Source: a virus
Taxonomy: Duplodnaviria > Caudoviricetes
DNA: 64,000 bases
Virus record (IMG/VR): IMGVR_UViG_3300005656_000005
Coordinates: 1-64,000 of that record
Direction: 5' to 3' (one strand)
The first letter of the stretch is position 1; every line of letters starts with the position of its first letter. The position numbers and the translations under genes were made by a program. The notes beneath the pieces are model-generated. The model saw only the letters and a list, made by a program, of their open reading frames with translations. It searched no databases and was not told the origin of the DNA. Shown piece after piece: positions 30,488 to 61,640 of the stretch.

Positions 30488-30489
30488 TT

Positions 30490-31350: not shown

Positions 31351-31351
31351 A

Positions 31352-32128: not shown

Positions 32129-32137
32129 GTCTTATTT

Positions 32138-32671
32138 TTAATCTTCTTCCCATACTATATTACAAAACCAATGATTCGTAGCAGGGTTAGAAGCACCTGC
32201 TGAAGCAACTATTTGTATAAGTAATGCCTGATTCTGTCGAAGAATAAGGTTTTGTGTTTCTACGATAAGCGGGGCTACATTGTTATCAGGAGCAAGCACC
32301 TGACCTACTACTGTGTGCATCCGCATACAATATTGCTGCCATAGCGTTGTACCTGCTGTTGATGTAATTGCTGTTGCAACGCCACCGTCAGAAGCAGTAC
32401 CTCCCCGAATAATTGTATTTGCATTTGAAGCATTTGTGGTATCAAATTGCCCTTTTGAAATTACTGTGCCTCCTGTTGGAACGGCTGTTGCTCGTGAAAG
32501 TTTTACCTGTGGCATTACTGAAACGAGAACTGCGGTTGCATCCACCTGTACGGTAATTCGCCTGATTGTAACCAACTTTGTTGCATCAATGTTTTCAATA
32601 GTAAAAAGGTTCTGCGGTGTTGCCGCCGTACCTAATGTCCTGAATGATGCTGCTGTAAAATAACCTGCCAT
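32138..32671 (-). CDS. Structural/decoration-like protein
   Basis: 177 aa, beta-rich, paralog of downstream gene. Confidence 0.6.
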   Translation of the reverse strand: MAGYFTAASFRTLGTAATPQNLFTIENIDATKLVTIRRITVQVDATAVLVSVMPQVKLSRATAVPTGGTVISKGQFDTTNASNANTIIRGGTASDGGVATAITSTAGTTLWQQYCMRMHTVVGQVLAPDNNVAPLIVETQNLILRQNQALLIQIVASAGASNPATNHWFCNIVWEED

Positions 32672-32690
32672 AAATTTGTTTTTTTAAAAG

Positions 32691-33182
32691 TTAAGATACT
32701 GTTAAAGTCCAAGTAATTACGATACTGTCCACTGCTGTTTTATTCACCACTGCAAACGAAGCACTCATCCACATATTTACGGTATTGGCTGTTACAACAT
32801 CAAATGTTCCGGCTTCGGTTATTGCACCTGTACCAACACCTGCGCCAAATGTAGCCACCACTGTTACCACTGCCGCAGGTGCAGTTTTTGAATCAAAAGC
32901 TACTCTGGCAACCTCTGCCCCCAGTAAAGTAGCAGCGGGAGAGCCTGTGCCAATAGCCATCCATCCCATTTTTGGAAGGGTAGGTGCTGCCAATATCTGA
33001 TTAGCAACGCCATTCTTTCCGGCTGTTGTTACTGTGTTTTTTATAAACCTTTCATCTTTAAGTTTCCAGTTTTCATCAAATAGCTGAACGTGCATATTCG
33101 CATAAATACCTAAAGCAGATGCCATTCCTTTGGTAACACCCATTGAAATTTCATCTGTTAGTTTTGCATTTGACTTTATCAT
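32691..33182 (-). CDS. Tail-collar/fibre-like structural protein
   Basis: VTTAGK...MAIGTG...E..R...GTGAITEAG...VNKT..D...ITWTLT pattern of collar-fibre-type domains. Confidence 0.6.
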   Translation of the reverse strand: MIKSNAKLTDEISMGVTKGMASALGIYANMHVQLFDENWKLKDERFIKNTVTTAGKNGVANQILAAPTLPKMGWMAIGTGSPAATLLGAEVARVAFDSKTAPAAVVTVVATFGAGVGTGAITEAGTFDVVTANTVNMWMSASFAVVNKTAVDSIVITWTLTVS

Positions 33183-33185
33183 AAC

Positions 33186-33605
33186 TTATTTTTTAATTGC
33201 TATTTGATTTGCTGGTTTATAATTAACCTTTACTGATTCAGTTGCCCCGTTCCACCCTTTTACCAATACAAAACTTTCAGGTAATAATCTGTTTTCCAAT
33301 GCCTCAATTACCTTATTATTTGATGCTACTATATCCTCACATATTTTCTGTACCGAAGTTACAAATTCTTTTGGGTTTAAATCTACTTTTACCTCTGGTT
33401 TTGGAATATCCTGGATTGCTGATACTAACTTCTCCATTTTATCAGCCTGATTATTAAATGCGACCACTACTGCTTTATCATCTTTATTATTTAAAGCAGT
33501 GGCTAACCCGTTAAAAGCCTTAATCAGTGCTTTGTTACGTTTGTCAGCCTGAATATCATCAAACTCCCGTTCATCTATTTCTTCTATATCGTCAATCATA
33601 AACAT
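33186..33605 (-). CDS. Hypothetical protein
   Basis: 139-aa ORF. Confidence 0.65.
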   Translation of the reverse strand: MFMIDDIEEIDEREFDDIQADKRNKALIKAFNGLATALNNKDDKAVVVAFNNQADKMEKLVSAIQDIPKPEVKVDLNPKEFVTSVQKICEDIVASNNKVIEALENRLLPESFVLVKGWNGATESVKVNYKPANQIAIKK

Positions 33606-37807: not shown

Positions 37808-37810
37808 CTG

Positions 37811-39730
37811 TTAATCTTTAATTGTTACTCCATTTGCCTTTAGTAATACTTCGTACTCTTTTGCACTATACCCTGCTGCTGCTGCTTTCGATGGTATATC
37901 TGACCTGTTAATTTCTGTTTTTGTTTTTGTACTTCCGCTTGTTGTTGTACCACCTCCATCAGTATTAGTGGTAATACCTCCTGTTACATCAATTCCCATG
38001 TAAGAGTTTAATTCTTTTGCACCTGAATTTTTAAGTTCTTCATTCAGTATATTTGTTCCGATATTATACAGGTTTGTTGATTTAGTATTGTCTAAATTAC
38101 CCACAAGCATACCATCTTTTAAGACTTCTATTTCCACTTCTTTGCCATTTACTTTCCTGGGGCCAAAGACATTAATTTTGCCATCTACTAATTGTATTCC
38201 ATATTTTTTACCGGATAAATCCAATGGCTTAAATCCTCCTGCTGTAATTATTTTTCCATCCTTATCTCTTTCCTCTGGAATTTCAATACCCAAATATTTA
38301 AGTTGCTCTACATTAAGCTGCCTTAATTTATCAGGTGTTATTACTCCATTAGAATCTGCAATTTTTAGCATATCAGCATAGATACGTTTAGCCCTTTCCA
38401 TTGCACCGTTAATCTGTGTGCTACCACCTGATTGGGCTGCTTTCCACTTATCTTCTTCCAGTTTAAGTTGTTTCCCTTTTAAATACTGATCGGCTTTATT
38501 ATTTCTTATGGTTTCTGCTAATGTTTGCTTTTGAATCGCATTATCATTTGAGGTTAATGTTTTATCTATTTTATCGGGTGCAGCTTTTGCAAACATATCA
38601 AGGAAAGATAAATCCTCTGGTTTTAATGGCTTGGTAACGTCTATAAATTTTACATCGCTTTCCTTATCTCCACCAACAAGTAAAACTTTTTCACCTGTTA
38701 CATCATCAATGTAAGATTTGTTTTTTATATCCTCCAGTCTTTTTTTAGCGTAATCGTTATATCTTTCTGCAACAGCTAATATACCACCAATAATAGGATT
38801 GTCTGATTTTACTTTTTCTACATCAACTTCTGTTGTTAGCGATGTTGTAGGCAATTCCCCGACTACATTAATTCCAGATGTGGTAGCTATTTTTTTATAA
38901 TTAGGATCGTTTAATGCGCTATTAAAAAAGTTTGCAGACGTTGCCCATACGCCAATATCGCTTTCTTCAAAAACTAATTTCTGTTGTTCATATTCTGCCT
39001 GTTGTTGCGGTGTTGCATTTGGTGGTAAAATAGGTGCAGCAAAACCATTCCCATTCAGGTACGCAATTTTCCATGTATTGCCTATTGAAAACTGTTTTAT
39101 TGTTTCTTTAATTGTAGCATTACCATCAAGCCCTGTTTTAATAACGTCTACTTCATCTATAACTGCATCTCCATTTTTAGGAACTACTACTTTATGGTCA
39201 GGGATTTCCGGTAATATTAAAATATCGGTGCTATTAAATAAATCTTCTGCCTGTTTAATCATTAACTCTTTTCTATTTGCAGGTATGGTGTTATCTCCCT
39301 GTACTTTTGCTTTATAGGCATCAAGTTTTATTTTACGGGCATTGGCAGCGTCTATTTTTTTAAGCATCCCTTGTATGTCAGTCTGAAAAGATACTTCTCT
39401 TGCCATTTTTTCTTTTGGACTTGATGGTGTTCCTAATCTTGCTTCTTTAGCCCTGCGTTCAATTAGCTGCGCCTGGGCTTCCATAAGTTCACCTTTGTCC
39501 TTTTCAAGTCCATTAACTAAGTCATAAGCTGTTAACTTTGCAAGTTGTTTTATTTTTTCATCTGCATCTATTTGTGCTTGGTCATACTGATCTTTTTTAT
39601 ACCTTAAAGTATAGGCATTTAATAACTCAAATGGTCTTGTGCTTATTTCAAATGCACCTGTGCTACCGCCACCTAATGAACTTTCACCACGATATTGGGC
39701 GGCATTTGATATTTCGTTTATTGTAGCCAT
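37811..39730 (-). CDS. Internal virion/ejection protein, 639 aa
   Basis: Position and helical composition. Confidence 0.55.
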   Translation of the reverse strand: MATINEISNAAQYRGESSLGGGSTGAFEISTRPFELLNAYTLRYKKDQYDQAQIDADEKIKQLAKLTAYDLVNGLEKDKGELMEAQAQLIERRAKEARLGTPSSPKEKMAREVSFQTDIQGMLKKIDAANARKIKLDAYKAKVQGDNTIPANRKELMIKQAEDLFNSTDILILPEIPDHKVVVPKNGDAVIDEVDVIKTGLDGNATIKETIKQFSIGNTWKIAYLNGNGFAAPILPPNATPQQQAEYEQQKLVFEESDIGVWATSANFFNSALNDPNYKKIATTSGINVVGELPTTSLTTEVDVEKVKSDNPIIGGILAVAERYNDYAKKRLEDIKNKSYIDDVTGEKVLLVGGDKESDVKFIDVTKPLKPEDLSFLDMFAKAAPDKIDKTLTSNDNAIQKQTLAETIRNNKADQYLKGKQLKLEEDKWKAAQSGGSTQINGAMERAKRIYADMLKIADSNGVITPDKLRQLNVEQLKYLGIEIPEERDKDGKIITAGGFKPLDLSGKKYGIQLVDGKINVFGPRKVNGKEVEIEVLKDGMLVGNLDNTKSTNLYNIGTNILNEELKNSGAKELNSYMGIDVTGGITTNTDGGGTTTSGSTKTKTEINRSDIPSKAAAAGYSAKEYEVLLKANGVTIKD

Positions 39731-39742
39731 TGTTATTTTAAA

Positions 39743-40396
39743 TTATCTTGTCACTATTGTTCCCGGTGCTGTTCCTGTTGTTCTTACTGGTGCTGGTGTT
39801 GTTGTTACTACCTGACCGCTATTGTTTAAAATTGTTGGTGGCGGTAAAGTATAATTGTCGTTATACAAATTATTTGATGCCAAATTCGTTACGCCTTGCA
39901 TTGTTAAGTTCAACCCGCTATTTATTGTTTTATTGGCATCTTCTTTTTGTTGGTTCAATGCAGCAATCAAATCTTTTGTTTGATTATCCTGCCATCCCCA
40001 TTCTGCATCTCGGCTTTTTGCTACCATGTCCAATCCTCCAATATATTTCCCAAACCCTTCCAAATTAGTTGCATGAAACTTATCACCTACCGTTATTATG
40101 CCTTGCATATGCCTGTCAAATGCTGCTGCTGCATCATTCGGATCACCTCCTAATAATTGAACTACATCCAATTGATTTGCAAATGAACGGTTTATTAGAT
40201 TGGTTTCATAATCTCTTGTTTGGGTATCCCCTTGTGCTTTATTTTGTAAAGCATTTAAGATGGTAAAAACTTCTTCCGGCGTTTCGTATGCCTTACGATT
40301 TTTTATCGCATCCTTTTGTTTTTTATTTGCTCTGGATGATTGGTAAGCACCTACTCCGATGCTGACTACGCCCACAGCTATAGCTGCCCATGACAT
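39743..40396 (-). CDS. Small ejection/pilot protein
   Basis: N-terminal glycine-zipper MSWAAIAVGVVSIGVGAY followed by coiled coil, typical of podovirus pilot proteins. Confidence 0.65.
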   Translation of the reverse strand: MSWAAIAVGVVSIGVGAYQSSRANKKQKDAIKNRKAYETPEEVFTILNALQNKAQGDTQTRDYETNLINRSFANQLDVVQLLGGDPNDAAAAFDRHMQGIITVGDKFHATNLEGFGKYIGGLDMVAKSRDAEWGWQDNQTKDLIAALNQQKEDANKTINSGLNLTMQGVTNLASNNLYNDNYTLPPPTILNNSGQVVTTTPAPVRTTGTAPGTIVTR

Positions 40397-40937: not shown

Positions 40938-43900
40938 TTAAAGATTTCCTGTAAACCCGGTTTGCTCCGAAACAGAACTCTTTGAGATAATCAAATCCAA
41001 TTCATCAAAGGCCACCCTTTTTACATCATTTGTGCTGCCATAAATCAATGCGTTTGTGTTATCCCTAACCAATGTAACGGCACAGAAATATCCTCTTGGT
41101 TTCTTACCTGCTACGTTTGGATCTGAACCATATAAACCACCCCTGCTATTCTTATCGCATAGAAATTCTGCGTTCCATTTGTCCATTTTCTTTGTCCATC
41201 GTACAGGTGGAATTTCGCTTTCAAATGTGGTATCATCTACTGTTACTTTTGATGCAAACCACATGGTTTCATCCTGAATTTCCATTGCCATTGGATTCTT
41301 TGCCTTGTCTGGGTTTTCATTTATGGCTATCCCTATCACACAATCCACAGCTTGCCCAAAGAACTTATTGTATTCAATTGGAATAATGCTATGAATATAT
41401 GGAACTCCTAAATAGAAACTTACAAATGCCGCCCCGGTACTATTGTTAAATACTATGTTTGAATAGCCTTCCGGCGTATAAGATGCAAATGTTAAAAGTT
41501 CTTCTGTTCTGGGTTCAATTAAAATTGTGCTGCGGTAATTTATAAACGGTTCCTGTTCATTATTTATTCCAGATTGGTTCAAGGCTTTAACTGTTAATTG
41601 TAATGCGTTAGTGTGGTAGTTCATACCTGTTACCCATCTCATTTTAGATACATCGTTAACGGCTGTGCTATTCACATTTTCCATGTACTGAATTGTTTTC
41701 TTTACCCACAAATTAAATTTGCCTTCTGAAATGTCTTTGGCAATATTAAAATCGTGTTTAACCAAGCAACCTTTCCCCTTGTCAATCCATGTAGCCCATC
41801 CATCATTAAAGTTTATAGAACCTATGCTATCATACCGGCATCCAAATATTCCGCTTATCTTAGGCTGTGTATCGCTTATTAAGGCATCTGCCGGTGCAGC
41901 TTGTACCATGCCGTTAGAATTTACCCTTAAAAATTCATCTGAAATCTGGAATAAGAAACTGTCAAACTCTCCAATGCCCAAACCTATTTTACCATCATAA
42001 ATTGCCATTGCAATTACATCGCCTTGCTCTGGGGCATCCAATGTTTTTTCCAGATCACCGAAACGATTAAACTGGCCTATTGAATTTATGGTTATGTTCC
42101 GGCCATGCCTTCTTTCGTTTTCAAATTTATTTACAAAGTGAACTTTACCCACATCGCTTAACCCCGTAAATATTCCTTCCGCATTTGCCTGTCCCCAAAA
42201 GTCTGATGGAAATTTATGTTCAAACTGTTGTGGCGGGTTACTCTCTAATGGGTTGCTTCCCTCAATTTGCCTTATTACAATAAATGTATCAAAAGTTGTA
42301 AATGTTCCTGATGGTATCGCTAACAGTTTTTGACCACTAATATCAATCAATGGCAATGATGCTATTTCAAAGTATGTTGGCTCTACTGTACATTCTCTTG
42401 GCCTTTGTAATTCTATTTTTGCACCAACGACTAAATCATCCAGGTTGCCATCGTCACTAATCAATATCTGGTTAAAAAATTCTGCCGGGGCTTCGGCTTC
42501 GCCGCTTATTACCTTATCGTGGAATGGGCTAAGTATCTGATAATTTAATAAGCCAAATGTGGCTACATCAAATATGCTTCCATCTCCGTTGCTTATAAAT
42601 TCAACCCTGTCATTTTTTTGGTATTGGTAAAGTGTATTGGTTTCAAAATTATAAGTAGCATTGTAGTCATTTAGGCTTTGAATAGTAAGTTTTATTTTAC
42701 GATCTGCCGTCCTTTCAATTTTATCAATTACCCATTGGAGTTCATAATTATTTACATTCGTTCCCCTTACTATTTTTAAGCACGTACCCCAATCTGGCAA
42801 TACCATTCCAATAGCACTATATGTAAAACTACAAAAACTCAATACTCCTTTGTCCTGTGTTTTAGGTATGTCCAAATAATTATCTCCTGTTGGTAAACTA
42901 CCGCTAAGTACCGTTGCCGGATATACAGCACTTAATCTTCCGCAATCTCCCTGCACAACAAAACCAAATGGATACCTGCCACCTGATTTAAGACCTCTGC
43001 CACTTACTAAAGCAGGTATCTTATTAAGACTTGCTGTTGGTAATATTTCAGTTGTATGTTGTGGAGAAAAACAGGCTGGTAATAAAGTATTTGCGGTTGA
43101 AGGTAAACATGGATTACAACCATCTGCACAGTCAGCCGTAAAGCAATTATTTACATCCATTATTACTGCTCTCACACTTCTTGCCCTTGTGCTGTAATTC
43201 CTTACTTCAAATGTAGCAATACCAGTAACGGCATCTGTTACCTGATATTTAGAACCGCTTAAAGCCACCCTTATGCCGCCTACTGGTAAATTATCACAAT
43301 CTACTACAGGGATATTTACTGTTTCATAAAAGTCAGTAATGTAGGTTGGGAAATCAACATTTGTTATTTGTGCATTTACCTGTACCATGTTATTGTACCT
43401 GCCATCCATTACTACTGTTTTCACAGTATTAAATCCTGCACCACAATTTGTTTCAACCCTTACCTGTACTGTTATTGTTTGTGTGTTATTACTTCCGTAA
43501 TTATAGAAATTAAAAAAACCGTTATGATCTGTATAAGCCTTTATTACTCCGTTACTCCATAATTCAGCCCCCTCAACAGGGACATTATTTGCATCGGTTA
43601 CATATCCGGTATAAGCAGATGAACTATGAGTACCTGTTTGAAATTTAAGATAGTTATCACTAATTATTAAGGCTTCATCTAATTCTACATCACCGGAACA
43701 GGTATCAAAATACAATTCTCTTGCCCTTTGATTTACTATCCCACTTATATCTAAATACCCGGTATAACTGTGTATGTCAGGTATTGTACCTACAACAAAT
43801 GTAGATGTTAATTGACCTTCTGACGGTATGCCATTGATTTCATTTTGAGATGCTAATCTTATAAAACCTTTTGTACCTTTTGGAACTTTTAATGTGTATT

Positions 43901-45458
43901 TCTGATAATAAAAATTACCATTTAAAACATCAATTGTTAGCCCAAATGCTATTTCTTCTTTTGCAAGTCCAGGGATAATCCCAATTTCTTCTGTATTTGT
44001 AAAATAAGGCTCTGCCCTATACTGTGTCATTTGCGACCAATAGTTAGTTCCTTCTACATAAGCTATAAAGTTTCTTACTTTTTTATCTTTGAAATATTGC
44101 CCCATAGCAGTAGGTATAAGCCATGCTGAACCGCCTAATGTAAAAGGTATTCCAAATCTTGCACTATCTGTTAAGTCATCGGTATCTCCTGCATTTCCTC
44201 CTTCACGATAAACAAAACCATTCATATTTCTACTTGGTTCGTAATTATGTATTATCGCATAGGCTGTTACTGTTGCATATTCGCCTACACAATTATCGGC
44301 TGCACAGTTAATTCCTATTTCAAATTTAGCTGCTTCGCTTCCATCAACGGGGCAATTACCTTTTAAGTAATTATAAAAACCTAATGCTGTATTGCCATTA
44401 TTAGCCAAAGGTATAATCCCCTGTGGTTGTCTTGGCATTGGATTAAATACTCTTGCTGTTTCAACCGGGCTTATTGGATTACACTCTTTATCGTTACAAA
44501 AAATATAATCAAATGTACAGTTTACCAAATCAATATTTAATAGGTCTGCAAGTTCTCTTTCATACCAATACTGCGAACTGCTATTGTATGGTTGGTACTT
44601 TTCAACTACTTCAACTGATTTCCAGTTTATACCATTATCTGTGCTTACTGCAAATTCAATTTTATCAACCAATGGATTACCCAAAGGAATAGTAAATTTT
44701 ATACATCTTGGATAGCCTTCACTGGCATCAAAGCATCCTTTACTATCCTGATAATAAAGTGTACTTATATCACTCCATTCGTTTGCTCTTTGATCGTAAT
44801 AAATATGCCTGAACCGTACTTTAAAACCTACATCTATTAAATGATTTGTAAGGTCAACCTGGCTTGCTGCCAACGTAACCCATTCACCTTCCAATGCTCC
44901 ACAGGTTTCAGGTACACACATTTGAGTATAAGCACATAAATCAGGGCAGTTATCAAAAAAGGCTGTGGCAAAACTTCCTGTAGCAATGCTTGCTTCAACA
45001 TCAATCATCCCTATTTCATTTTCACCGTCTGTCCATATCAGTTGTTTCCCATGTTGGTGAGCGCAAAACCTATCGTATTTTAAAAAGCATCTCCATTCTT
45101 CAATAGCATGTTCCGGTGCTGCACTTAATGTAAGGCAATCACCATCATAAACAATTTGGCAAGTGCCATCACCATTTAAACGGGCAATGTAGTGTACCGC
45201 ATTTGTATTGTACACCCACCAGTAAAGTTCGTTTGTAAGTTCGCTGAAATAATGTCCTATGGAATAATTATCACCTACTGGTTGGTCAATAAGACAGGCT
45301 AAATAATTTGCAACAAGTGGAGTTGTTTTTCCAAGTGTTCCTGTACCATTAATATTACGTTCCCTGTTAAGCATATAATATGCCTCTGTAGGGGTCAAAT
45401 ATTTTTTTGACTTGTCAAGGTTTACAGCAATAGGTTTATTTATTTGTCTTTGCTGCAT
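40938..45458 (-). CDS. Tail muzzle/stabilisation protein (gp10-like), 1506 aa
   Basis: Beta-propeller-like N and C regions (WTDGENE, LIWTD, WIDKGKG), size and position after ring proteins. Confidence 0.7.
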   Translation of the reverse strand: MQQRQINKPIAVNLDKSKKYLTPTEAYYMLNRERNINGTGTLGKTTPLVANYLACLIDQPVGDNYSIGHYFSELTNELYWWVYNTNAVHYIARLNGDGTCQIVYDGDCLTLSAAPEHAIEEWRCFLKYDRFCAHQHGKQLIWTDGENEIGMIDVEASIATGSFATAFFDNCPDLCAYTQMCVPETCGALEGEWVTLAASQVDLTNHLIDVGFKVRFRHIYYDQRANEWSDISTLYYQDSKGCFDASEGYPRCIKFTIPLGNPLVDKIEFAVSTDNGINWKSVEVVEKYQPYNSSSQYWYERELADLLNIDLVNCTFDYIFCNDKECNPISPVETARVFNPMPRQPQGIIPLANNGNTALGFYNYLKGNCPVDGSEAAKFEIGINCAADNCVGEYATVTAYAIIHNYEPSRNMNGFVYREGGNAGDTDDLTDSARFGIPFTLGGSAWLIPTAMGQYFKDKKVRNFIAYVEGTNYWSQMTQYRAEPYFTNTEEIGIIPGLAKEEIAFGLTIDVLNGNFYYQKYTLKVPKGTKGFIRLASQNEINGIPSEGQLTSTFVVGTIPDIHSYTGYLDISGIVNQRARELYFDTCSGDVELDEALIISDNYLKFQTGTHSSSAYTGYVTDANNVPVEGAELWSNGVIKAYTDHNGFFNFYNYGSNNTQTITVQVRVETNCGAGFNTVKTVVMDGRYNNMVQVNAQITNVDFPTYITDFYETVNIPVVDCDNLPVGGIRVALSGSKYQVTDAVTGIATFEVRNYSTRARSVRAVIMDVNNCFTADCADGCNPCLPSTANTLLPACFSPQHTTEILPTASLNKIPALVSGRGLKSGGRYPFGFVVQGDCGRLSAVYPATVLSGSLPTGDNYLDIPKTQDKGVLSFCSFTYSAIGMVLPDWGTCLKIVRGTNVNNYELQWVIDKIERTADRKIKLTIQSLNDYNATYNFETNTLYQYQKNDRVEFISNGDGSIFDVATFGLLNYQILSPFHDKVISGEAEAPAEFFNQILISDDGNLDDLVVGAKIELQRPRECTVEPTYFEIASLPLIDISGQKLLAIPSGTFTTFDTFIVIRQIEGSNPLESNPPQQFEHKFPSDFWGQANAEGIFTGLSDVGKVHFVNKFENERRHGRNITINSIGQFNRFGDLEKTLDAPEQGDVIAMAIYDGKIGLGIGEFDSFLFQISDEFLRVNSNGMVQAAPADALISDTQPKISGIFGCRYDSIGSINFNDGWATWIDKGKGCLVKHDFNIAKDISEGKFNLWVKKTIQYMENVNSTAVNDVSKMRWVTGMNYHTNALQLTVKALNQSGINNEQEPFINYRSTILIEPRTEELLTFASYTPEGYSNIVFNNSTGAAFVSFYLGVPYIHSIIPIEYNKFFGQAVDCVIGIAINENPDKAKNPMAMEIQDETMWFASKVTVDDTTFESEIPPVRWTKKMDKWNAEFLCDKNSRGGLYGSDPNVAGKKPRGYFCAVTLVRDNTNALIYGSTNDVKRVAFDELDLIISKSSVSEQTGFTGNL

Positions 45459-46856
45459 CTACACCATTTTATTGAAGTTAACAATCAGCACATCTCCTTC
45501 AAACCATGTATTAGGGCTACGTTCAATATTTCCTGTTGTACTATTGAATGTAAACTGACTTAGCTTTTTTGTTTCAATAGCATTGTTCACAATTATATAT
45601 TCCAAATCAAATGCACCGATAAGGTCATCGTTTTGGTATGCCGTATCTCCTGGAACTGGTAAACCTGCTGTAGATGCTGCCGGAACTTTAACAGCAATTT
45701 GAAATGGAGTTATTTTAGGTGTGACGTTACATACTGCTGCTGTACTATCACATCCTGTTACAGAAGCGTTTGTAATGGTTACTGTGTCTGTTGCAACCGG
45801 GCAATAATTATTCCATGCAGGTTCTAACCAGTTAAATTTAGGTGTCAGTCCGATAATATGAATAATATCATCAAGGCTTACCCTTGACATTACTTTTATC
45901 ATGGCTCTCCTTTCAATGCCATACCTTGTCCACCTGTATGCTTTGTCAGGGTTTGAAACATTCTTTTTGCCATCAATAGCCATTGCCTTAATATATTCAA
46001 CTAAGGTTTCAAAAGCTACTTCTGGTACTGCTAATTGTCCGTTTAGTTTTGGGATAAAACCACGATATTCCAAATAAACCTGTGTCTTTCTGAAATTGTA
46101 ATCAAACTGTATTTGGCCTGTTTCTTCAAATATTTTATAGCTACCTACATTTGTATCACAAACATCACTACATGGTGCGTAATGGCAGCAATAAGCATCA
46201 TAGCAACAATTTCTAATCGTTTCAATATTTTCTGCTGTGGGATTAATGCACCCACATACTGACAGGTCAATTGTTGCTATGTATTCTTTTGTTGTTGCGT
46301 AATCTAATGCACCACTTGTTAAATTCCAATAAGGTATAGTGGTTTCCAGATAATATCCACCATCGGGATAAAGTTTTTTAATGACTGTTTTTTCTGCTGT
46401 TGTGGTACTTGGAACCCCTTCTGCATCAATGGTGTTTACCGTTACTATTTCTGTTGTTTCTGTTACGGTAAGATCATTGCATATTGTACTATCCTGTCCA
46501 CAAACAGCACAGGTATCTTCACATTCAATTGTGGTTATTGAATTATCATTTGTCAGTTTTGTATTTAATGGTATGGCTATTTTTTCGCCGTAGTCATTAA
46601 TGTACCCTACAAATGTTTCAATGTCAAAATCCGGTGGTAAAGATGCAGTACGGGTATTTTGATTAACGGTTATAAGGCAATTCCTTCTACCGCTTTTTAA
46701 TGTTTCACGTTGTAGTTTTTTTAATCCCCTTGCTGCCCAATGAAAATGTAATTGCTGTGTCTTACCAATATCTTCATAAAAATCTATGATGCTGGCGTTA
46801 ACCACCTTTGAAAGTGGCACTAACTTTTTTAATATGTCTGGGCAATTTGGATTCAT
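45459..46856 (-). CDS. Tail ring/tube protein, Cys-rich
   Basis: SLPPDF..E..VGY, VYLEY, VPEVAFETL pattern of crAss-like ring proteins. Confidence 0.6.
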   Translation of the reverse strand: MNPNCPDILKKLVPLSKVVNASIIDFYEDIGKTQQLHFHWAARGLKKLQRETLKSGRRNCLITVNQNTRTASLPPDFDIETFVGYINDYGEKIAIPLNTKLTNDNSITTIECEDTCAVCGQDSTICNDLTVTETTEIVTVNTIDAEGVPSTTTAEKTVIKKLYPDGGYYLETTIPYWNLTSGALDYATTKEYIATIDLSVCGCINPTAENIETIRNCCYDAYCCHYAPCSDVCDTNVGSYKIFEETGQIQFDYNFRKTQVYLEYRGFIPKLNGQLAVPEVAFETLVEYIKAMAIDGKKNVSNPDKAYRWTRYGIERRAMIKVMSRVSLDDIIHIIGLTPKFNWLEPAWNNYCPVATDTVTITNASVTGCDSTAAVCNVTPKITPFQIAVKVPAASTAGLPVPGDTAYQNDDLIGAFDLEYIIVNNAIETKKLSQFTFNSTTGNIERSPNTWFEGDVLIVNFNKMV

Positions 46857-47449
46857 TAATTTTGCGGATTACTGTTGTTTGTTTTATCTACAAACCCTAT
46901 TTTTTGAAAATATATTTCGTCCAACCGATTTCGTACCTGTGCGCCAATGGCATCATCAACTTCAATATCTTCATCAATGTCTTTCCCACTCCCTGCGTAG
47001 ATAATGGTTATTGGATTTGAGTGTGTTCCTTTCGGGAATATTATTTTTTTACCTAAAACTACATAGGGGTAATACAGATCAGGTAGGCTATCATCATCCT
47101 TTAAAAGTTGGGTTTGATTTATGTTGCTTTTTACATAAACACAATCATCTGTCAGCTTTCCTATTTTTCCTAACCACCTGTCATTTGGCAATCGGCTCAT
47201 AATATCCAAACTGGAAATATCAACTTCGTTATCTACCACTTTTAATGGTTCTGATTCTTTTGATAGATTTCCTGGCATATTAAAAACCCCTTCTGTCGCA
47301 TTTTCTCTCCAGTACCATAACAGAAAAGCATAGGCATATTCCAGTTTAGCGGTAGCAATAAAAGATTCACGGCTAATAGCCACTTCATCGGTGGCTAATG
47401 GAAATTGTTTTTCCCATGACAGGTTAGCTATTTCAAGTAGGTTTGCCAT
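46856..47449 (-). CDS. Tail ring protein
   Basis: 197 aa; YYPYVVLGKKIIF and DIEVDD motifs; position. Confidence 0.5.
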   Translation of the reverse strand: MANLLEIANLSWEKQFPLATDEVAISRESFIATAKLEYAYAFLLWYWRENATEGVFNMPGNLSKESEPLKVVDNEVDISSLDIMSRLPNDRWLGKIGKLTDDCVYVKSNINQTQLLKDDDSLPDLYYPYVVLGKKIIFPKGTHSNPITIIYAGSGKDIDEDIEVDDAIGAQVRNRLDEIYFQKIGFVDKTNNSNPQN

Positions 47450-47709
47450 TATTTTTTACCTGAAAATTTTATAGGGTTCGTTTGACTGAAATACTCTTTG
47501 TTAAACCATGTTTGATTTCTTCCTTTCCCCTTAGTTCCGCTTTCAGAAACTATAAAGCCGTTCTCAATTTGCCGAACACTTAAATTTTCATTCTTATCCA
47601 ATTTAATGTTAGGTATTGCAGATTCGGTTGTACTCTTTGTTGTACTTTTTTTAGCTGCCGGTTTAGCAGGTGTACTTGCCATCATTTTTTTGGGTGTGTA
47701 CTGTGCCAT
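47449..47709 (-). CDS. Small basic protein
   Basis: K/S/T-rich N-terminus, VRQIENGFIV, ends FSGKK. Confidence 0.65.
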   Translation of the reverse strand: MAQYTPKKMMASTPAKPAAKKSTTKSTTESAIPNIKLDKNENLSVRQIENGFIVSESGTKGKGRNQTWFNKEYFSQTNPIKFSGKK

Positions 47710-48110
47710 TATTTTTTATTTTTTGTGTAATTAATTTTACGTTCCCTAAGATTAAAATATTCTTGCTGCTCTATGTGCTGATAATATTTTGCTTTAATTT
47801 CAATATACTTGTAAGCACTCCAAACAATACCGCTAACTGCACTTGTTCCACAAACCACAAATGGATATAAAATTAAATTGTTCCATTGTAGTAATTCAAT
47901 CCATCCTAACCCTGCTGCTGCTAAAAAAGATATTGAACTATGTATTGAAGGTCTGCACCAAATACAGGTTATTAAAGGTTCAAAAATCTTACTGCTTTTG
48001 CTCTCTGCCCACAATCTTACTTTATGTAGCCCCATACCTTCACTTAGCAAAATTTCAATACCTATATTCCATATACTTGTAAGAACTATTATGCTTAATA
48101 ATGTTATCAT
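47709..48110 (-). CDS. Membrane protein with CxxC (DUF1360-like)
   Basis: Three hydrophobic segments; LITCIWC motif; additional Cys in last TM. Confidence 0.6.
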   Translation of the reverse strand: MITLLSIIVLTSIWNIGIEILLSEGMGLHKVRLWAESKSSKIFEPLITCIWCRPSIHSSISFLAAAGLGWIELLQWNNLILYPFVVCGTSAVSGIVWSAYKYIEIKAKYYQHIEQQEYFNLRERKINYTKNKK

Positions 48111-48829
48111 CTTTTCCCTGCTGCTTCATTCATTTGAAATAAAGATGCCTCTGAAATATGAGTACTGAAACCCTGCACCAGATAATATAAAATTAACTCC
48201 CTTGCCCACTCTCCAAATTCGTTATCAATTGAAGTTGCGGGATCAGCTACTTCATTATAATAAACGGGGTCTTGTATTGTATTTATTGTTCCGTATATTG
48301 GATAACGTATGTATTCCAAAGTGCAACTTCCTAATTCTCTTGGTAAAAATTCAATCGTATTCCCTATCATTTTACAGATAGGTTTTTTGGGTGACGGCTT
48401 TAACCCAGAAATATATGTTTGCGCCCTAACGTAAAACTGTTGCCCATCCAACATTTCGGCTGGCGTTTTAATTATTTCTGCCACAGGACTATCTTCATCG
48501 CAGTTAGTATTATCTACTTCGCATCCAGTTTGAGATAACGATAAAATGTAAAGATTGTCATAGTGGTAATAATCGGAAGGTCTTGTAATAACACCATTAG
48601 TAATAGGTGCTGAATAAGCAGTAATTAAGGTTGCAATAAAATCCTTTGCTTTTTGGGTAGAATAAGAAATTGGTAAATTCTGATTTGAAGCATCCCCTGT
48701 TATATAGTCAAGAACCCTGTTAGAAGCTATCCTTATACCTTGATTGAACATTGAATAACTCCAATATCCGTTTTCGTCCTTATTCGCCAATAATCTTGCG
48801 GCATCTTCGTATAAACTTATAGAATCCAA
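48107..48829 (-). CDS. Head-tail connector/ring protein
   Basis: FNQGI..AS..., ITRPSDY, LEYIRYP motifs typical of crAss-like ring 1. Confidence 0.6.
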   Translation of the reverse strand: MDSISLYEDAARLLANKDENGYWSYSMFNQGIRIASNRVLDYITGDASNQNLPISYSTQKAKDFIATLITAYSAPITNGVITRPSDYYHYDNLYILSLSQTGCEVDNTNCDEDSPVAEIIKTPAEMLDGQQFYVRAQTYISGLKPSPKKPICKMIGNTIEFLPRELGSCTLEYIRYPIYGTINTIQDPVYYNEVADPATSIDNEFGEWARELILYYLVQGFSTHISEASLFQMNEAAGKR

Positions 48830-48845
48830 TGGCTTTCATTTTTTA

Positions 48846-50117
48846 TTATGCTAAAATACTTAATACAATTGGTATGTTCTTTATTAACGCATCTGCTGCT
48901 GTACCTGTTAAATCATTTGAACGTACATAAATGCTATCGGCTGCGTTATATCCTGCTTTAATGAATGACTGTGCTGTTGGGCTTGACTGAATAAAGCTGC
49001 TTGAATTTATCTGTACAAAAGTATTCGCCTCTGTTAATGCTGTATAAGTACCAGATAAAGTACCAATGTATAAACCCGCTGATGTTCTTGTCCATGTAAT
49101 TGTAACCTGATTTAAAGAACTTTCAACTGCGGTAGGGGCATCTGTACTTGATTGATTTAATATTGCTTTATACAGGAATAAATTTGATGAATAATTACCT
49201 ATTACCGGCGTTCCTTCGTTACAATTGCAGGTGCATTGGCAACCCAATAGTTTTTCCAGGTCAGCGATATAATCACTTGGATCTTCACCGCATTGTGCAG
49301 TTAATTTTGCAAGCTGGAATAACCACAAAGCATTTAAGGCTATTGAAGCGGTTTCATCTTTTTGCGCCTGTGAACAATCTGAATTTACTTTTAATTGAAG
49401 TTCTGCAAGTTTGGCCTGTACGCAACATTCATCAATGATGCAGTAGATTATTTTTTCGCATTTTACCTTGTAGTTCACTTTAAAGTAAACGCTGTCACCG
49501 TATGAATAAAGAACACAGGCTGTACCTGTTAATTTGTATTGCCCCTCGTATAATTGAACGCTGAATGAACCCATTACGGTTTCAAGTGGCGATAATCCGC
49601 TTGCTGTTGGGTATTCAAGTGTGAGATCATTAACCTGTGATGAAAATGCTGTTCCTTTATAATTTGGAGGATTATTTAAAAGTACTACCAACTCCCCGGT
49701 GTTACAATCTCCTTTCAATGTAGCATCTAAACAACCGTATTTCCTTGTAGCATTATCGGGGTCTGGAGGACAAATATTTACTGTTTTTGAAATTACCCAT
49801 GTGTCACCGTTTGCATCTGTAAGCCTTACTGCAATGGTATAAGTTCCATATTGATAATTACCTGCGATAAGAGGTATGGCAAAAGAAAAAATAGAAGTCA
49901 TGGGTGGATAAATATCAAACCCTGACGTTATATAATCATTAATGACAACACCAACTGGATTTGTGATCTTTACGCTTGCACCCTGTACATTATCATATCC
50001 CGTTCCGATCCAAACGCTTGGGGTTACATCTACTAAAAAGTTGCCACCGCAAAGGTCAGCTACTATTTTTGAATCAAGCGATGTTACATTAGGACTTCCG
50101 GTTGTTGGAGTTGCCAT
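48846..50117 (-). CDS. Cys-rich structural protein
   Basis: 423 aa, beta-rich, CQCTCNC motif. Confidence 0.6.
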   Translation of the reverse strand: MATPTTGSPNVTSLDSKIVADLCGGNFLVDVTPSVWIGTGYDNVQGASVKITNPVGVVINDYITSGFDIYPPMTSIFSFAIPLIAGNYQYGTYTIAVRLTDANGDTWVISKTVNICPPDPDNATRKYGCLDATLKGDCNTGELVVLLNNPPNYKGTAFSSQVNDLTLEYPTASGLSPLETVMGSFSVQLYEGQYKLTGTACVLYSYGDSVYFKVNYKVKCEKIIYCIIDECCVQAKLAELQLKVNSDCSQAQKDETASIALNALWLFQLAKLTAQCGEDPSDYIADLEKLLGCQCTCNCNEGTPVIGNYSSNLFLYKAILNQSSTDAPTAVESSLNQVTITWTRTSAGLYIGTLSGTYTALTEANTFVQINSSSFIQSSPTAQSFIKAGYNAADSIYVRSNDLTGTAADALIKNIPIVLSILA

Positions 50118-50142
50118 TTTGTTTTATTTTAAATGTAAAAAA

Positions 50143-50196
50143 TGGGCTGCATTACTATTGTCGTTCTACTTGAATTTGCCAATAATAATGCGCCCA
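50143..50196 (-). terminator. Long hairpin with U-tract (terminator or processing site)
   Basis: 17-bp stem with one bulge and one G-U pair on the minus strand, followed by TTTTTT. Confidence 0.6.
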
Positions 50197-50204
50197 CCTG
50201 AAAA

Positions 50205-50381
50205 CTATTTTTTCCCACTAAAACTCATGCGAACTGACGGCTTACCAAAGGAACTCATAGTGGCTGCTCTACCTGATGGAGTATAGCTTCCTTTAGATGC
50301 TTTAGCACTTGATTTCTTTGGAGAATAAGTGTTTCCTGATTTTTTGTTGCTGCCCATGCAGCCGGGGCCTCCCATACACAT
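50205..50381 (-). CDS. 58-aa basic K/S/G-rich protein (not in ORF track)
   Basis: MCMGGPGCMGSNKKSGNTYSPKK...VRMSFSGKK. Confidence 0.7.
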   Translation of the reverse strand: MCMGGPGCMGSNKKSGNTYSPKKSSAKASKGSYTPSGRAATMSSFGKPSVRMSFSGKK

Positions 50382-50399
50382 AATTGTAAATTTTAGTGG

Positions 50400-51341
50400 T
50401 TATGAAACTAATTCTTTTTCTTTAACTTTTTTTGTTGCATCTTTTCTTAAATCATCAAGCAGTAATTTCCCTGCCGGTGATGTTAAAAATTCAATGAAAT
50501 ACCTTTGTCTTTCCATCGGCGTATATTCACTTCCGATTGCTTTTAATTCAATCCAGTTTTCACCTTTTTTCTTTGCTACCTGGCCTTCAACTGCATCAAA
50601 AGACAATACTCCCCGTGAAACCAATGTGCCTACCAATACCTGCACTTCTTCATCAATGGTTGTATCTTCTTTTAAAATATCAGTCATGGCATCATCGGAT
50701 TCATCCATGTAATTCACCAATGCGTTCTGTGCTGCTTCTAAGCTGTCCGGTAATTCATAGAATGTACCGAAAATACGAATAAGCATATCCTGTGCCTGTT
50801 GCAGATTTAAGCCATCAATTTTGTTGGCGGCTTTCAGCCTGTCTTTAAACGCTTTGTTTTCACTTACCACTTCCACATTTTTATCGTACAATTTGAAACA
50901 TGGTCTTGGCACTTCCAAACAGGTTCCTTCAAAACCTTCCATCCACGGGCTTACTTCCAGGTATCTTTGTACGGCAGGGTTATCGGTGGTTAATGTATTG
51001 TGCCGGAATTTCCTGGCATCATATTCCATCTGTGTAAACTTTTCATTTGCCGGAATTTTTTCTTTTTCGATCTGTTCATCCTGATAAGGGGTATTGCTGT
51101 TCAGCTTTAACCTTATGGTTCGGTTCTGTCCTTTTTTCTCATTGGGTATTTTCTGCCCAAATGTTTTGCTTTTCGGATCGTAGTCAATAACCTTTTCTGC
51201 GTTATCCAGAAAGGTCATTTGTAGGTTTGGCTCCCATTGTGGAAGTGTGTTTAACCTTACCCTTTGGTGTTGATTTATCTGTTGATAAATTTGTGCTGTT
51301 GGATGCAGATGCTCCAATAGAACGTAAGTCTTTAATGCCAT
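50400..51341 (-). CDS. Conserved capsid-linked protein (crAss-like gene downstream of MCP)
   Basis: RTIRLKLNSNTPYQDEQ..., NPAVQRYLEVSPW pattern; position after MCP. Confidence 0.55.
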   Translation of the reverse strand: MALKTYVLLEHLHPTAQIYQQINQHQRVRLNTLPQWEPNLQMTFLDNAEKVIDYDPKSKTFGQKIPNEKKGQNRTIRLKLNSNTPYQDEQIEKEKIPANEKFTQMEYDARKFRHNTLTTDNPAVQRYLEVSPWMEGFEGTCLEVPRPCFKLYDKNVEVVSENKAFKDRLKAANKIDGLNLQQAQDMLIRIFGTFYELPDSLEAAQNALVNYMDESDDAMTDILKEDTTIDEEVQVLVGTLVSRGVLSFDAVEGQVAKKKGENWIELKAIGSEYTPMERQRYFIEFLTSPAGKLLLDDLRKDATKKVKEKELVS

Positions 51342-51413
51342 TTTGTTTTTGTTTTAAAAATTATGAACCAACTTTAAATTACGGGCTGATTCGATAACCG
51401 TTTTTATGTTTTT

Positions 51414-51466
51414 AAAAAGAGAGGGGGAAAGCCTTTTTTTCATACGCCAGCCCCCTTTTTCTCTTT
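51414..51466 (-). terminator. Terminator-like hairpin after major capsid gene
   Basis: GGGGG...CCCCC stem with flanking AGAG/CTCT and T run on minus strand. Confidence 0.55.
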
Positions 51467-51481
51467 TATTATTTACTTATT

Positions 51482-52903
51482 TTACAGGCCCATATAACCC
51501 CAAGTGTTCGGGCAATGTACCTCCTGCAAAAATCGACTTTTTATGCTCCACTCTTGCGTTTCGCAACCAGTGCCAAATGTATTCCTTACACCAAGTACAC
51601 CATTGCTATCTGTCATGTTATCCCAAACCCTTCCGTCCATTGATTTGAAATAAACAGTGGTCAGCATTTTGTTGCTGTAGCCATTGCAGGATGTAGTGAT
51701 TGAAGTACGGTTTACGGCTTCTGAATTGTTGCACATTGGAACGAAGATGGCTGAATTTTTAAATACCATGTTCGGGCCACCCAGTAACTTACCATTACTG
51801 AAAGTACATTCTTCATAGATATGAAGTGTCATACCTTCAACTTTGATACCGCAGTATTCCAGGTTAATCCATGCACAATCGTTCAATGGCCTTTCAGAAT
51901 ATTGCAGATTAGCAATACCTACTGAATTTGCCATGCGCTGCCATTGTGAGAATAAAACACCACCCGCAAAGATTGCGTATTCACGGCAAGCAATACCGGC
52001 TGCATCCAGATCCCTTTTCCATGCACGTATATCATCTGTTGTAATTTCAGATGTAGATGCAGGTTGGAATTTGATACCCCTTGCTTTGATGGCAGGAATG
52101 ATACCGAAATTAGGATTCAATAACCTTTCGTAATGCTTACGCATTTCAAAGTCCTTGTACATATCGGCAAGGGCTTTTGTCCACCACTTTTCGATTGTGT
52201 TACCGCAATCATCGGTGAATGGAATTTTAAGGTACTGGCATTTGTTTAAAGCATCACCGCAAAGTGTTCCTTTGTCACCAATGGTAATCATATTCAGATC
52301 ATATACGATTGGTAAATCATCGAAACGGAATTGCCCGGTAGGACAGGCACAATCGGCAATTTCAGAACCGGAAAGAACCAATAACTGATCTCCGGCTGTT
52401 ACTACCTGTGCTGCTCCTGATGTGTTGCGTAAACGCACTGTAATGGTTGTGTCATACCCTGTTGCATGGGTTACGGCAGTTACTACGGCAAGTTCACCGG
52501 ATGGGCTTAAAACGATTGTATTACCTACCTGTGGTAAGTAATAAACGCCACCTACAAACTGGTTTGCATTTGCAAGGGCTATGATGCCGGTTGCTGGATA
52601 TGCACCAATGGTTACGTTTGTTTTTACTGTGATCTGATGAAGCTGTGCATTGTTTTCGATCAAACTGTAAGCGGGGTAGCAATCGGTTTCAAAGTTCATA
52701 AAATCTTCTAACCAGGTACTCATGGTACATTGCTCGATAATATTACAGTTGTATGTTTCCTTGTAAATTTTGTCGGTGTGGATGCGGCCAGCGAAGGCGG
52801 CATCAAAAAAATCTTGTGCTACTGGGGTTCCGACTGTACCCGAAAAGTAGCCTTGCTGATAACCAAGTCCGTTAGGATTGTTGGTGGTTACGATAGCGGC
52901 CAT
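51482..52903 (-). CDS. Major capsid protein
   Basis: 473 aa directly after scaffold-like gene, high-expression codon style, followed by terminator; size matches crAss-like MCP. Confidence 0.8.
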   Translation of the reverse strand: MAAIVTTNNPNGLGYQQGYFSGTVGTPVAQDFFDAAFAGRIHTDKIYKETYNCNIIEQCTMSTWLEDFMNFETDCYPAYSLIENNAQLHQITVKTNVTIGAYPATGIIALANANQFVGGVYYLPQVGNTIVLSPSGELAVVTAVTHATGYDTTITVRLRNTSGAAQVVTAGDQLLVLSGSEIADCACPTGQFRFDDLPIVYDLNMITIGDKGTLCGDALNKCQYLKIPFTDDCGNTIEKWWTKALADMYKDFEMRKHYERLLNPNFGIIPAIKARGIKFQPASTSEITTDDIRAWKRDLDAAGIACREYAIFAGGVLFSQWQRMANSVGIANLQYSERPLNDCAWINLEYCGIKVEGMTLHIYEECTFSNGKLLGGPNMVFKNSAIFVPMCNNSEAVNRTSITTSCNGYSNKMLTTVYFKSMDGRVWDNMTDSNGVLGVRNTFGTGCETQEWSIKSRFLQEVHCPNTWGYMGL

Positions 52904-52947: not shown

Positions 52948-54114
52948 TTATCGCCCCGGATTAAATCTTTGTGGTTGCCCTGCTTTTACAATCTTTCCCG
53001 TACCCTTTGCTTTCTCGGCCTGTGAACTACCGCCCACACCAATAGACTTAGGGTCAACAAATGGAAACACCTTTTTAAATTCTTCAACCTGGCGTGTACC
53101 TCCTTCAAGGTATGCGGTTTTGGCTACTGAATCAAAGGCTTTTGATTTCAAAACAAGTTCGGCAATGTTCTGTAGATTTAATGAGCCGTCTGTTGCGTTA
53201 AATAATAATTCCTTCCTTTTAGCAATGTCCTTTAGGATGTCTTTTGCTTCGGCAACTACTGTTTCAGGGAACTCGTATGCAACCGGGGCTATTTCGGTGT
53301 CGTCCACCTTCCCCAATTCCAAGTTGATTTTACGTTCCAGTTTATTGAAGTGTTCCTCAACATTAGAGGTAAATTCACTTTCTTTCTTGGTGTAAAACTC
53401 CTTCGCTGTAAGTGCTTTTTTAAGATTATCTAAGGTGTCTTTTGCTTCTTCTTGTTTTTCTGCACCTATGGCTTCAAATTTCTTTTTGCCATAGTCAAAC
53501 TTTTTCTGTGCCAATTCCTTTTCCGTTTCATCTTCAATTGCATCAATCTCGGCTTGCTCCAGTTGATAATACCTTTCTTTCTGGATGGCTTTTATTTGTT
53601 CCGGGTCTGTTATACCGGCTTCTTTCAATTGTTGTGTGAGTGCTGCTACTGACAGTTCTGTAAGGTCTGATTCTGCAACTTGCTTTAACAGGGAAAATTG
53701 GGCAATGCTGCCACCGTTTTCAACATAGAGGTCAAGCATCCTTTTTTCAACTTCCTGTTGCTGCTTTACTTTTTGTTCATCGGTAAGTTCTGTTTTCTGT
53801 GGAAACCGTTTTTCGTATTCAGCCTTAATTTCATCATCGGTTAAAGGCTTTGTGGTGTCGGCAATTTGATTTCCTGTGGTGGCTGCTGCCTGTGTGCCTG
53901 TATCTGCTGCGGCAGCTTGTGTATTGGTGTCTGTGGCTTGTGCTGCTGTACCTGTATCGGCTGCTGCTGCTGGCTGCTGTTGGTTTGCTGCCCCTTCTAA
54001 ATTCGGTAAAGGATTGGCTTTAAAACTTGATACGGTTCCTGCTGAAACTATCTTTCCAGTTCCTTTATTTTCTGCATTTTCTGCTGTGGCTGCTGCCTGA
54101 TTTTCACCTTCCAT
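52948..54114 (-). CDS. Capsid scaffolding-like protein
   Basis: Acidic, low-complexity AAADTG N-terminus, long helical body, immediately upstream of MCP. Confidence 0.65.
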   Translation of the reverse strand: MEGENQAAATAENAENKGTGKIVSAGTVSSFKANPLPNLEGAANQQQPAAAADTGTAAQATDTNTQAAAADTGTQAAATTGNQIADTTKPLTDDEIKAEYEKRFPQKTELTDEQKVKQQQEVEKRMLDLYVENGGSIAQFSLLKQVAESDLTELSVAALTQQLKEAGITDPEQIKAIQKERYYQLEQAEIDAIEDETEKELAQKKFDYGKKKFEAIGAEKQEEAKDTLDNLKKALTAKEFYTKKESEFTSNVEEHFNKLERKINLELGKVDDTEIAPVAYEFPETVVAEAKDILKDIAKRKELLFNATDGSLNLQNIAELVLKSKAFDSVAKTAYLEGGTRQVEEFKKVFPFVDPKSIGVGGSSQAEKAKGTGKIVKAGQPQRFNPGR

Positions 54115-55336: not shown

Positions 55337-55406
55337 TTTTATATGTTTTACGTCACATTTTGTATTTGTGACAGCATCCTATTGTTTCCACACCTTACCA
55401 CACATC

Positions 55407-55461: not shown

Positions 55462-55465
55462 TACT

Positions 55466-57004: not shown

Positions 57005-57005
57005 C

Positions 57006-60195: not shown

Positions 60196-60206
60196 AATTT
60201 ATGTTT

Positions 60207-61630: not shown

Positions 61631-61640
61631 AGTTATTCGT

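Follow-up and report, generated by a model that had tools for sequence, protein, structure and literature searches.

Gene Order of the Virion Module

The window analyzed here comprises the first 64 kb (positions 1 to 64,000) of a single virus contig of 77,238 bp, IMG/VR record IMGVR_UViG_3300005656_000005, which is classed in IMG/VR under inverted terminal repeats and has an estimated completeness of 74% according to CheckV. It carries a block of virion genes in which the major capsid protein (MCP) and three further products are rich in cysteine (Cys), and in the midst of which lies the gene for a membrane protein of 133 amino acids (aa) with a CxxC motif. A preliminary description of this locus had proposed a shell stapled by disulfides or bridged by metal, with the membrane protein as a phage oxidase. 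The Cys residues of the capsid protein and of a muzzle-size tail-tip protein prove to be gained and lost in pairs among their homologs, which supports the proposed disulfide-stapled shell.

Nearly every gene from 8.9 kb onward is carried by the minus strand. Read along this strand, a glycosyltransferase and methyltransferase operon is followed by a Cys-free open reading frame (ORF) of 388 aa, the MCP gene, and eight tightly packed genes, the last of which encodes the 1506-aa muzzle-size protein; thereafter come very large Cys-poor proteins, a portal-size ORF and TerL, spike or fiber genes, and a lysis cassette. The features of main concern are the following:

52948..54114, minus strand: scaffold-like ORF before the MCP gene, 388 aa, 0 Cys, labeled by position
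51482..52903, minus strand: MCP, 473 aa, 16 Cys, identified by an AlphaFold2 (AF2) fold match, with at least 260 homologs
48846..50117, minus strand: Cys-rich virion-module protein of variable length, 423 aa, 15 Cys, identified by Cys count and synteny
47709..48110, minus strand: three-helix membrane protein, 133 aa, with C49-x-x-C52 at the start of helix 2, identified from sequence
45459..46856, minus strand: head-to-tail adaptor or ring-1 homolog with insertions, 465 aa, 17 Cys, identified by an AF2 fold match
40938..45458, minus strand: muzzle-size tail-tip protein, 1506 aa, 34 Cys, labeled by position and size
23480..40396, minus strand: presumed ejected cargo block of nine genes (217, 639, 1403, 139, 163, 177, 258, 286, and 2335 aa), labeled by position and size

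Sequence libraries returned almost no matches for the proteins of the window, and protein folding was informative instead. The sole match of TerL is phrog_6681; a phmmer comparison of 25 window proteins with 32 virion-module proteins of the crassvirus crAss001 gave none at E ≤ 1, and tblastn found no match for either the MCP or the 133-aa protein among 50,697 phage records. Relatives of the MCP were likewise absent from INPHARED and from two scans of IMG/VR. The homologs of the MCP (at least 260), the adaptor (186), and the muzzle-size protein (198, all of similar length) stem from assemblies of metagenomes and read archives, on contigs of up to ~96 kb; as to habitat, contig names hint at environmental metagenomes. 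Across 15 related metagenomic loci, the gene order and the partition of Cys among the genes are identical, down to an MCP identity of 43–45%.

The AF2 model of the MCP, with a predicted local distance difference test score (pLDDT) of only 67, represents an HK97-fold capsid protein with crassvirus MCPs as its closest counterparts: Foldseek aligns it with phage VP1 and crAss001 capsid proteins at E-values of 1e-13 to 1e-15 (VP1 9in6, 4e-15; crAss001 7qof/7qoi, ~3e-13). The model of the 465-aa protein (pLDDT 74) best matches the portal-proximal ring chains of crAss001 (7qoi_FS and 7qog_B; E 8e-4, probability 1.0), followed by the adaptors of other podophages; it has the fold of the crassvirus portal-proximal ring or adaptor, and its earlier label as a ring protein holds. 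The MCP and adaptor encoded here thus have their closest or nearly closest structural counterparts in the MCP and ring proteins of crAss001. The gene order is shared as well, with a scaffold-like gene, the MCP gene, ring-size genes, the adaptor or ring 1, a giant muzzle-size protein, and giant cargo proteins, although the adaptor of the window is twice as long as that of crAss001. The 1506-aa gene directly follows the adaptor gene, as does crAss001 gp44 (1371 aa); this position and its size make it a candidate muzzle, and its own matches are weak ones to Ig-like or CarboxypepD_reg domains. We regard the architecture as crAss-like because the folds of the MCP and adaptor agree with the gene order. 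As part of the overall explanation weighed below, the locus would be an operon for head-to-tail morphogenesis in an uncultured podophage of crAss-like type that belongs to a large clade.

Partition of Cysteine between Outer and Presumed Internal Proteins

The Cys counts reported in the preliminary description were all reproduced exactly: 16 in the MCP, 15 in the 423-aa protein, 17 in the adaptor, and 34 in the muzzle-size protein, as against none in the internal proteins of 217 and 639 aa and one each in those of 1403 and 2335 aa. Of the 2867 aa that make up the four Cys-rich virion proteins, 82 are Cys (2.86%; binomial P ~6e-24), compared with 7 of 5617 aa for the nine genes of the cargo block (0.12%; binomial P ~2e-28 vs. 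the rest) and 103 of 9216 aa (1.12%) for the remaining ORFs of the window. The proposed division into Cys-rich outer and Cys-poor internal proteins stands for these genes; it does not extend to the 952-aa spike, which has a single Cys, or to the portal-size 776-aa ORF, which has six, and the portal-size ORF and TerL are of ordinary Cys content. Among the relatives, the scaffold-like gene product lacks Cys in every case, as in the window phage, the MCP has 10–17 and the muzzle-size protein 26–36, and the first cargo genes again encode none.

The proteins of the nine-gene block are presumed, from their position and size, to be carried inside the particle for injection. The cargo proteins and virion RNA polymerase of crAss001 (gp45–gp50) are equally Cys-poor (7 Cys in 7478 aa), and for this reason depletion of Cys from the cargo is, going by these counts, a crassvirus trait shared beyond the clade. 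The Cys-rich capsid and muzzle are by the same token specific to the clade described here: crAss001 has just 2 Cys in its MCP of 504 aa and 10 in its muzzle of 1371 aa. The available part of the crAss001 structure paper (PMC10172136) makes no remark on the depletion of Cys from the cargo. The tail hub protein gp38 of crAss001 has 11 Cys in 215 aa.

Paired Gain and Loss of Cysteines in the Capsid and Muzzle-Size Proteins

The number of Cys in the MCP is even in 105 of 111 full-length homologs (16 in 63 sequences, 12 in 27, 14 in 12, 10 in two, and 18 in one) and odd in the other six. Twelve of the 16 positions are conserved at 90% or above; C53, C343, C351, and C464 are invariant. The remaining Cys vary in twos. 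C306/C391, C187/C447, C185/C215, and C75/C222 are always jointly present or jointly absent, and so are C59/C366 with one exception in 112 sequences. In the case of C233 and the C406 loop, C233 is present in 78 sequences, and these sequences and no others have a Cys at any of three adjacent loop columns. On a maximum-likelihood tree of the MCP, every pair partner changes one to six times, amounting to ~19 events in total, and C59/C366 is the only discordant pair, by one event; with so many independent changes, the signal does not go back to one inherited accident. Six covarying pairs together with four invariant Cys would give eight pairs per capsid subunit.

The muzzle-size protein shows the same behavior: in 116 sequences, the pairs 672/796, 385/876, 188/1032, 186/893, 181/839, and 326/1023 covary with phi values of 0.94–1.0. 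Coevolving, conserved Cys pairs of the kind expected of a disulfide-stabilized tailed-phage virion are hence present in both proteins, and their perfect or near-perfect covariation, in more than 110 homologs each, lends support to the disulfide-stapled shell that had been proposed. That the pairs are disulfides is favored over four-ligand metal sites or isolated packing residues because both Cys of a pair disappear together, whereas different pairs disappear independently.

The same description was not aware of such a particle in tailed phages, but there are published precedents. In the crAss001 virion, disulfides are described in gp57, the tail barrel, and the fiber hubs (PMC10172136; Bayfield et al. 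2023; PDB 7QOF-7QOJ). In the virion of Milano, the capsid, neck, collar, and tail are joined by a network of intra- and interchain disulfides, and treatment with dithiothreitol takes away its added robustness (PMC10491603); it is a covalently tied particle like the one suggested here, with disulfides that were seen there and are deduced from sequence here, although Milano is a myophage without sequence relationship to the window phage. Disulfides tie the fibers of Pam3 to its baseplate (PMC9942802), the Bacteroides phage PD491P1 is, going by a secondary citation, disulfide-stabilized almost throughout, with bonds within and between the chains of capsid, neck, and tail (Cai et al. 2026, cited in PMC13576161), and the virion of the Mycobacterium abscessus phage Jabs holds ~1,700 disulfides (10.64898/2026.07.24.740622).

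Cysteines of the Adaptor and of the 423-aa Protein

The adaptor presents a different picture. The stretch NCCYDAYCCHYAPCSDVC, quoted in the preliminary description, is indeed present in it, and its Cys are clustered in two places, C112-x3-C116-x2-C119-x6-C126 and C201-x-C203...CC..CC..C..C (residues 112–126 and 201–233). Among 116 homologs, C116, C119, C126, C201, and C203 do not vary; of these homologs, 56 have an even and 60 an odd number of Cys, so that parity is unbiased. The clusters may be a metal or iron-sulfur (Fe-S) site, or may form bonds between subunits, rather than simple intrachain disulfides. Adaptor homologs of ~560 aa have an additional domain, PF26209.

For the 423-aa protein, profile and library searches gave no family match. 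The syntenic counterparts of its gene in the relatives encode 409–1023 aa with 11–34 Cys, and because both length and Cys number vary in this way, a modular surface protein, for example a decoration or fiber protein, is suggested.

Clusters of the CxxxCxxC type and CC-rich segments, in which five Cys are invariant and parity is unbiased, look more like metal sites and speak for a reading in which the abundant Cys of the virion are not bonded to each other at all, and instead bind metals (Zn, Fe-S) or fill hydrophobic cores as free thiols. A 2026 preprint on the capsids of gut phages, which reports convergent Cys enrichment and mostly isolated thiols in predicted capsomers, favors packing of free thiols and points the same way. 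Such a reading is hard to reconcile with the strong even-number bias of the MCP and with Cys that in both MCP and muzzle are gained and lost strictly in twos, each pair independently of the others; as an account of the clade as a whole, we judge it quite improbable.

A Membrane Protein Family with an Invariant CxxC Motif

The 133-aa protein contains the motif LITCIWC, as had been described, and three hydrophobic segments. Its gene overlaps both neighbors, as in translational coupling: 4 nt are shared between its start and the stop of the upstream gene, and 1 nt between its stop and the start of the downstream gene. An exhaustive search of 1.84 billion representatives yielded 99 relatives. The motif reads C-x-[WFY]-C in all 97 of the full-length relatives, in most cases with M-P-S after it and often in the form C-P-aromatic-C; with a mean identity of 24% across the family, no column is invariant apart from the two Cys. 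The gene is found at the same operon position in all 15 related loci that span this point, including the most distant members. Lys and Arg are frequent in the loop before the CxxC (4.4 on average per family member) and in the C-terminal tail (5.1) and rare in the short loop between helices 2 and 3 (0.65), and by the positive-inside rule the CxxC is probably at the cytoplasmic face.

The preliminary description had likened this motif to the transmembrane CxxC of VKOR and DsbB, a kinship that our searches do not bear out. There is no family match to DsbB (PF02600), VKOR (PF07884), Erv/ALR, thioredoxin, or glutaredoxin at E ≤ 1 in the contig, which represents an estimated 74% of the genome. DsbB, VKOR, and Erv are also absent from the structure neighbors of the protein in the ESM Atlas. 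DsbB, VKOR, and the 133-aa protein all have a CxxC where a membrane helix ends at the lipid interface, but the former two have four helices and two Cys pairs, with the CxxC in the periplasm, whereas the latter has three hydrophobic segments and one pair, with no conserved second pair and the CxxC predicted to be cytoplasmic. We also considered PAP2: 12 members of the family match it, the best at E 3e-4, but these matches are below threshold and lack the PAP2 motifs, and this assignment was rejected.

Viruses can supply their own oxidase for assembly in the cytoplasm, as do poxviruses with the E10R-A2.5L-G4L pathway and mimivirus with R596, both of the Erv type. The 133-aa protein differs from these in lacking a flavin domain and any family match to them. 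It could nevertheless be a phage thiol oxidase of another kind, an inverted DsbB or VKOR in the inner membrane whose cytoplasm-facing CxxC would take electrons from the Cys pairs of virion proteins during assembly and pass them to membrane quinones. The predicted orientation fits this task, as does the CxxC itself, which opens a helix at the membrane interface and in many members has the C-P-aromatic-C form known from glutaredoxin and DsbA sites; moreover, the CxxC is the one invariant feature of so divergent a family, and the gene is translationally coupled within the virion operon of every clade member examined. The literature leaves room for such an enzyme: the authors of the Jabs study regard spontaneous versus catalyzed bond formation as an open question (10.64898/2026.07.24.740622), and a 2026 paper in Protein Science states that no disulfide-forming machinery is known in phages. 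Against it stand the missing similarity to DsbB, VKOR, and Erv, the three helices without a conserved second Cys pair, the want of a recognizable quinone or flavin site in the 133 aa, and the disulfide-linked virions of Milano and crAss001, which form without such a gene. On balance, we hold an oxidase to be improbable; a further argument on either side comes from the actinophages.

Remote Resemblance to DUF1360 and the Actinophage Parallel

The 133-aa protein had been called DUF1360-like. It does not match Pfam DUF1360 (PF07098), which has a curated cut-off of 21 bits, even at E 10, and a six-frame search of the whole contig gave no DUF1360 match either. At the level of the family, however, a remote resemblance emerges from several comparisons: 9 of 91 members have weak DUF1360 matches (best E 0.003); hhalign aligns the family with gp7 of mycobacteriophage PG1 over the CxxC and two helices at E 2e-4, with a probability of 47%, and the family profile recovers PG1 gp7 at E 2e-4; and the nearest ESM Atlas clusters to the 133-aa protein are viral, with 14–42% of their members carrying DUF1360. 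The architecture of helix 1, a charged loop, a C-x-aromatic-C opening helix 2, and helix 3 is shared with PG1 gp7, prophiT36-1 gp53, Tres gp11, and Evaa gp8. We therefore retain "DUF1360-like" for the protein only in this remote, family-level sense.

Bona fide DUF1360 genes, above the cut-off, are found in 468 actinophage records. In PG1, Tres, Evaa, harman, and prophiT36-1, the DUF1360 gene encodes a CPWC protein and lies immediately upstream of the portal gene; in these five phages it is usually preceded by a gene for a RuvC-like resolvase or DNA-binding protein. Jabs belongs to the same kind of phage and is represented here by prophiT36-1, whose two capsid proteins of 594 and 257 aa have Cys at positions 271, 281, 347, and 563 and at position 97, exactly the residues that form the capsid disulfides of Jabs. 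The four Cys of the hexamer protein (271, 281, 347, and 563) are conserved in PG1, Tres, and Evaa. With DUF1360 present and an MCP of ~1% Cys, PG1 might seem a counterexample, but the four positions of the Jabs disulfides are among its six Cys.

Similar genes for a CxxC membrane protein are thus found within the structural modules of two unrelated lineages rich in disulfides. The likeness between the clade of the window phage and the actinophages of the Jabs/PG1/Rosebush type consists in a small three-helix membrane protein with CxxC (CPWC in the latter) inside this module; the latter are siphophages of Actinobacteria with two capsid proteins, their membrane gene adjoins the portal gene, their C-terminal tail is acidic where that of the 133-aa protein is basic, and the similarity is remote. 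The co-occurrence of DUF1360-like genes with Cys-rich capsids, which had been put forward as a check, is seen in these two lineages; the whole genomes of Milano and crAss001, whose disulfides are visible in solved structures, have no DUF1360-like gene. A match of the family profile to crAss001 at 8005-8160 on the minus strand (E 0.017) falls in a 65-aa frame antisense to gp16 and was judged spurious. For an oxidase, the presence of remotely related CPWC genes next to the portal gene in a lineage with the Jabs disulfide Cys is a point in favor. It should be noted, however, that the co-occurrence extends to two lineages only and that the gene is universal within each, so that they offer no informative contrast between carriers and noncarriers. 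The wider proposal that DUF1360-like CxxC proteins are the first phage thiol oxidases, either recruited independently or kept from a distant common source in the two lineages, seems doubtful to us in the same measure.

The position of the actinophage gene, always immediately upstream of the portal gene, also permits a role that has nothing to do with disulfides; a constant location near portal or adaptor genes suits assembly at the membrane no less than it suits an oxidase. The 133-aa protein might be a membrane-bound factor for the assembly of portal or neck, a metal-bridged dimer, or a protein of entry, exclusion, or lysis timing, with the CxxC serving metal binding or oligomerization. Phage T4 starts its heads with a membrane chaperone, and the gene in the window sits among ring and adaptor genes whose products dock on the portal. 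Disulfide-rich phages without a CxxC gene are consistent with such a role, and three helices with the N-terminus outside and a charged C-terminal tail are also the architecture of class I holins. A holin is nonetheless superfluous here, and we set this possibility aside, because a complete lysis cassette, with an endolysin and five small membrane proteins, lies elsewhere in the genome:

8894..11268, minus strand: lysis cassette, with a Phage_lysozyme endolysin (PF00959, E 3e-33) and five small membrane proteins recognized by their hydrophobic segments

The small membrane proteins upstream of the endolysin (134, 126, 92, 79, and 165 aa) are candidate holin and spanin genes. That only the two Cys are invariant in the CxxC family, moreover, suggests the chemistry of a site rather than a docking surface. 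A function apart from disulfides is in our view unlikely, though worth keeping in mind.

A Particle Probably Held by Disulfides

The explanation that best accommodates these results, to which we give a probability of roughly 0.6, is that of a crAss-like clade in which capsid and muzzle are held by disulfides, the cargo is purged of Cys, and the bonds close at or after lysis. The mature particle would be stabilized by specific disulfides, putatively eight pairs in each capsid subunit and at least six in each muzzle subunit. The injected proteins, purged of Cys, would escape cross-linking in the oxidized particle and could unfold and pass through the tail. Because particles assemble in the reducing cytoplasm, the bonds would most likely close late, at or after lysis, through oxidation by the surroundings, which is also the course assumed for Milano, crAss001, and Jabs. 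The 133-aa protein would be a late, operon-coupled product associated with morphogenesis, and its CxxC at the predicted cytoplasmic end of helix 2 a candidate redox or metal site.

Several observations weigh against this explanation. If they are buried, closing eight pairs per subunit in an assembled particle may be difficult in the absence of a catalyst. The MCP model is of moderate quality, and several of the Cys lie in low-confidence loops. The families of the adaptor and of the 423-aa protein lack the even-number bias, so that some of their Cys are outside simple intrachain pairs. Finally, the preprint on gut-phage capsids cited above contends that Cys enrichment can consist of isolated residues with a part in hydrophobic packing.

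Other Genes of the Late Region

The remaining genes of the tightly packed block are the following:

50400..51341, minus strand: ORF after the MCP gene, 313 aa, 2 Cys, kept at ~300 aa in relatives
48107..48829, minus strand: ORF of ring-protein size, 240 aa, 4 Cys, labeled by size and position
46856..47709, minus strand: two small conserved ORFs of 86 aa (0 Cys, phrog_16394) and 197 aa (1 Cys)

The 240-aa ORF is kept at 223–244 aa in the relatives, and the ring proteins of crAss001 measure 225–238 aa. Directly upstream of the head genes, at 54752-63759 on the minus strand, lies the operon of glycosyltransferase, methyltransferase, and sugar-epimerase genes; comparable genes occupy this position in distant relatives as well, and glycan synthesis seems to be a trait of the clade. 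Two fiber or spike proteins are encoded on the minus strand, one of 748 aa at 11951-14197 with a hydrophobic segment at residues 6–24, and the above-mentioned one of 952 aa at 14173-17031, with a single Cys and a hydrophobic segment at residues 1–19. The late region also contains two HNH endonuclease genes on the minus strand, at 22128-22820 and 57909-58580 (phrog_374; E 1e-53 and 1e-60); with 9 and 10 Cys, they are two of the other Cys-rich ORFs.

Implications for Disulfide-Rich Phages

Phage particles stapled by disulfides have been a recurring theme since 2023. The present data would add a large clade of uncultured crAss-like phages, for which particular disulfide pairs of the capsid and tail tip can be predicted solely from the evolution of the sequences. 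They also provide one concrete candidate gene family for bond formation, located in the virion operons of two unrelated disulfide-rich lineages; as B-cluster mycobacteriophages are genetically tractable, the question of catalysis is directly testable. Even if the candidate oxidase were to fail, the clade would be useful for the engineering of robust particles.

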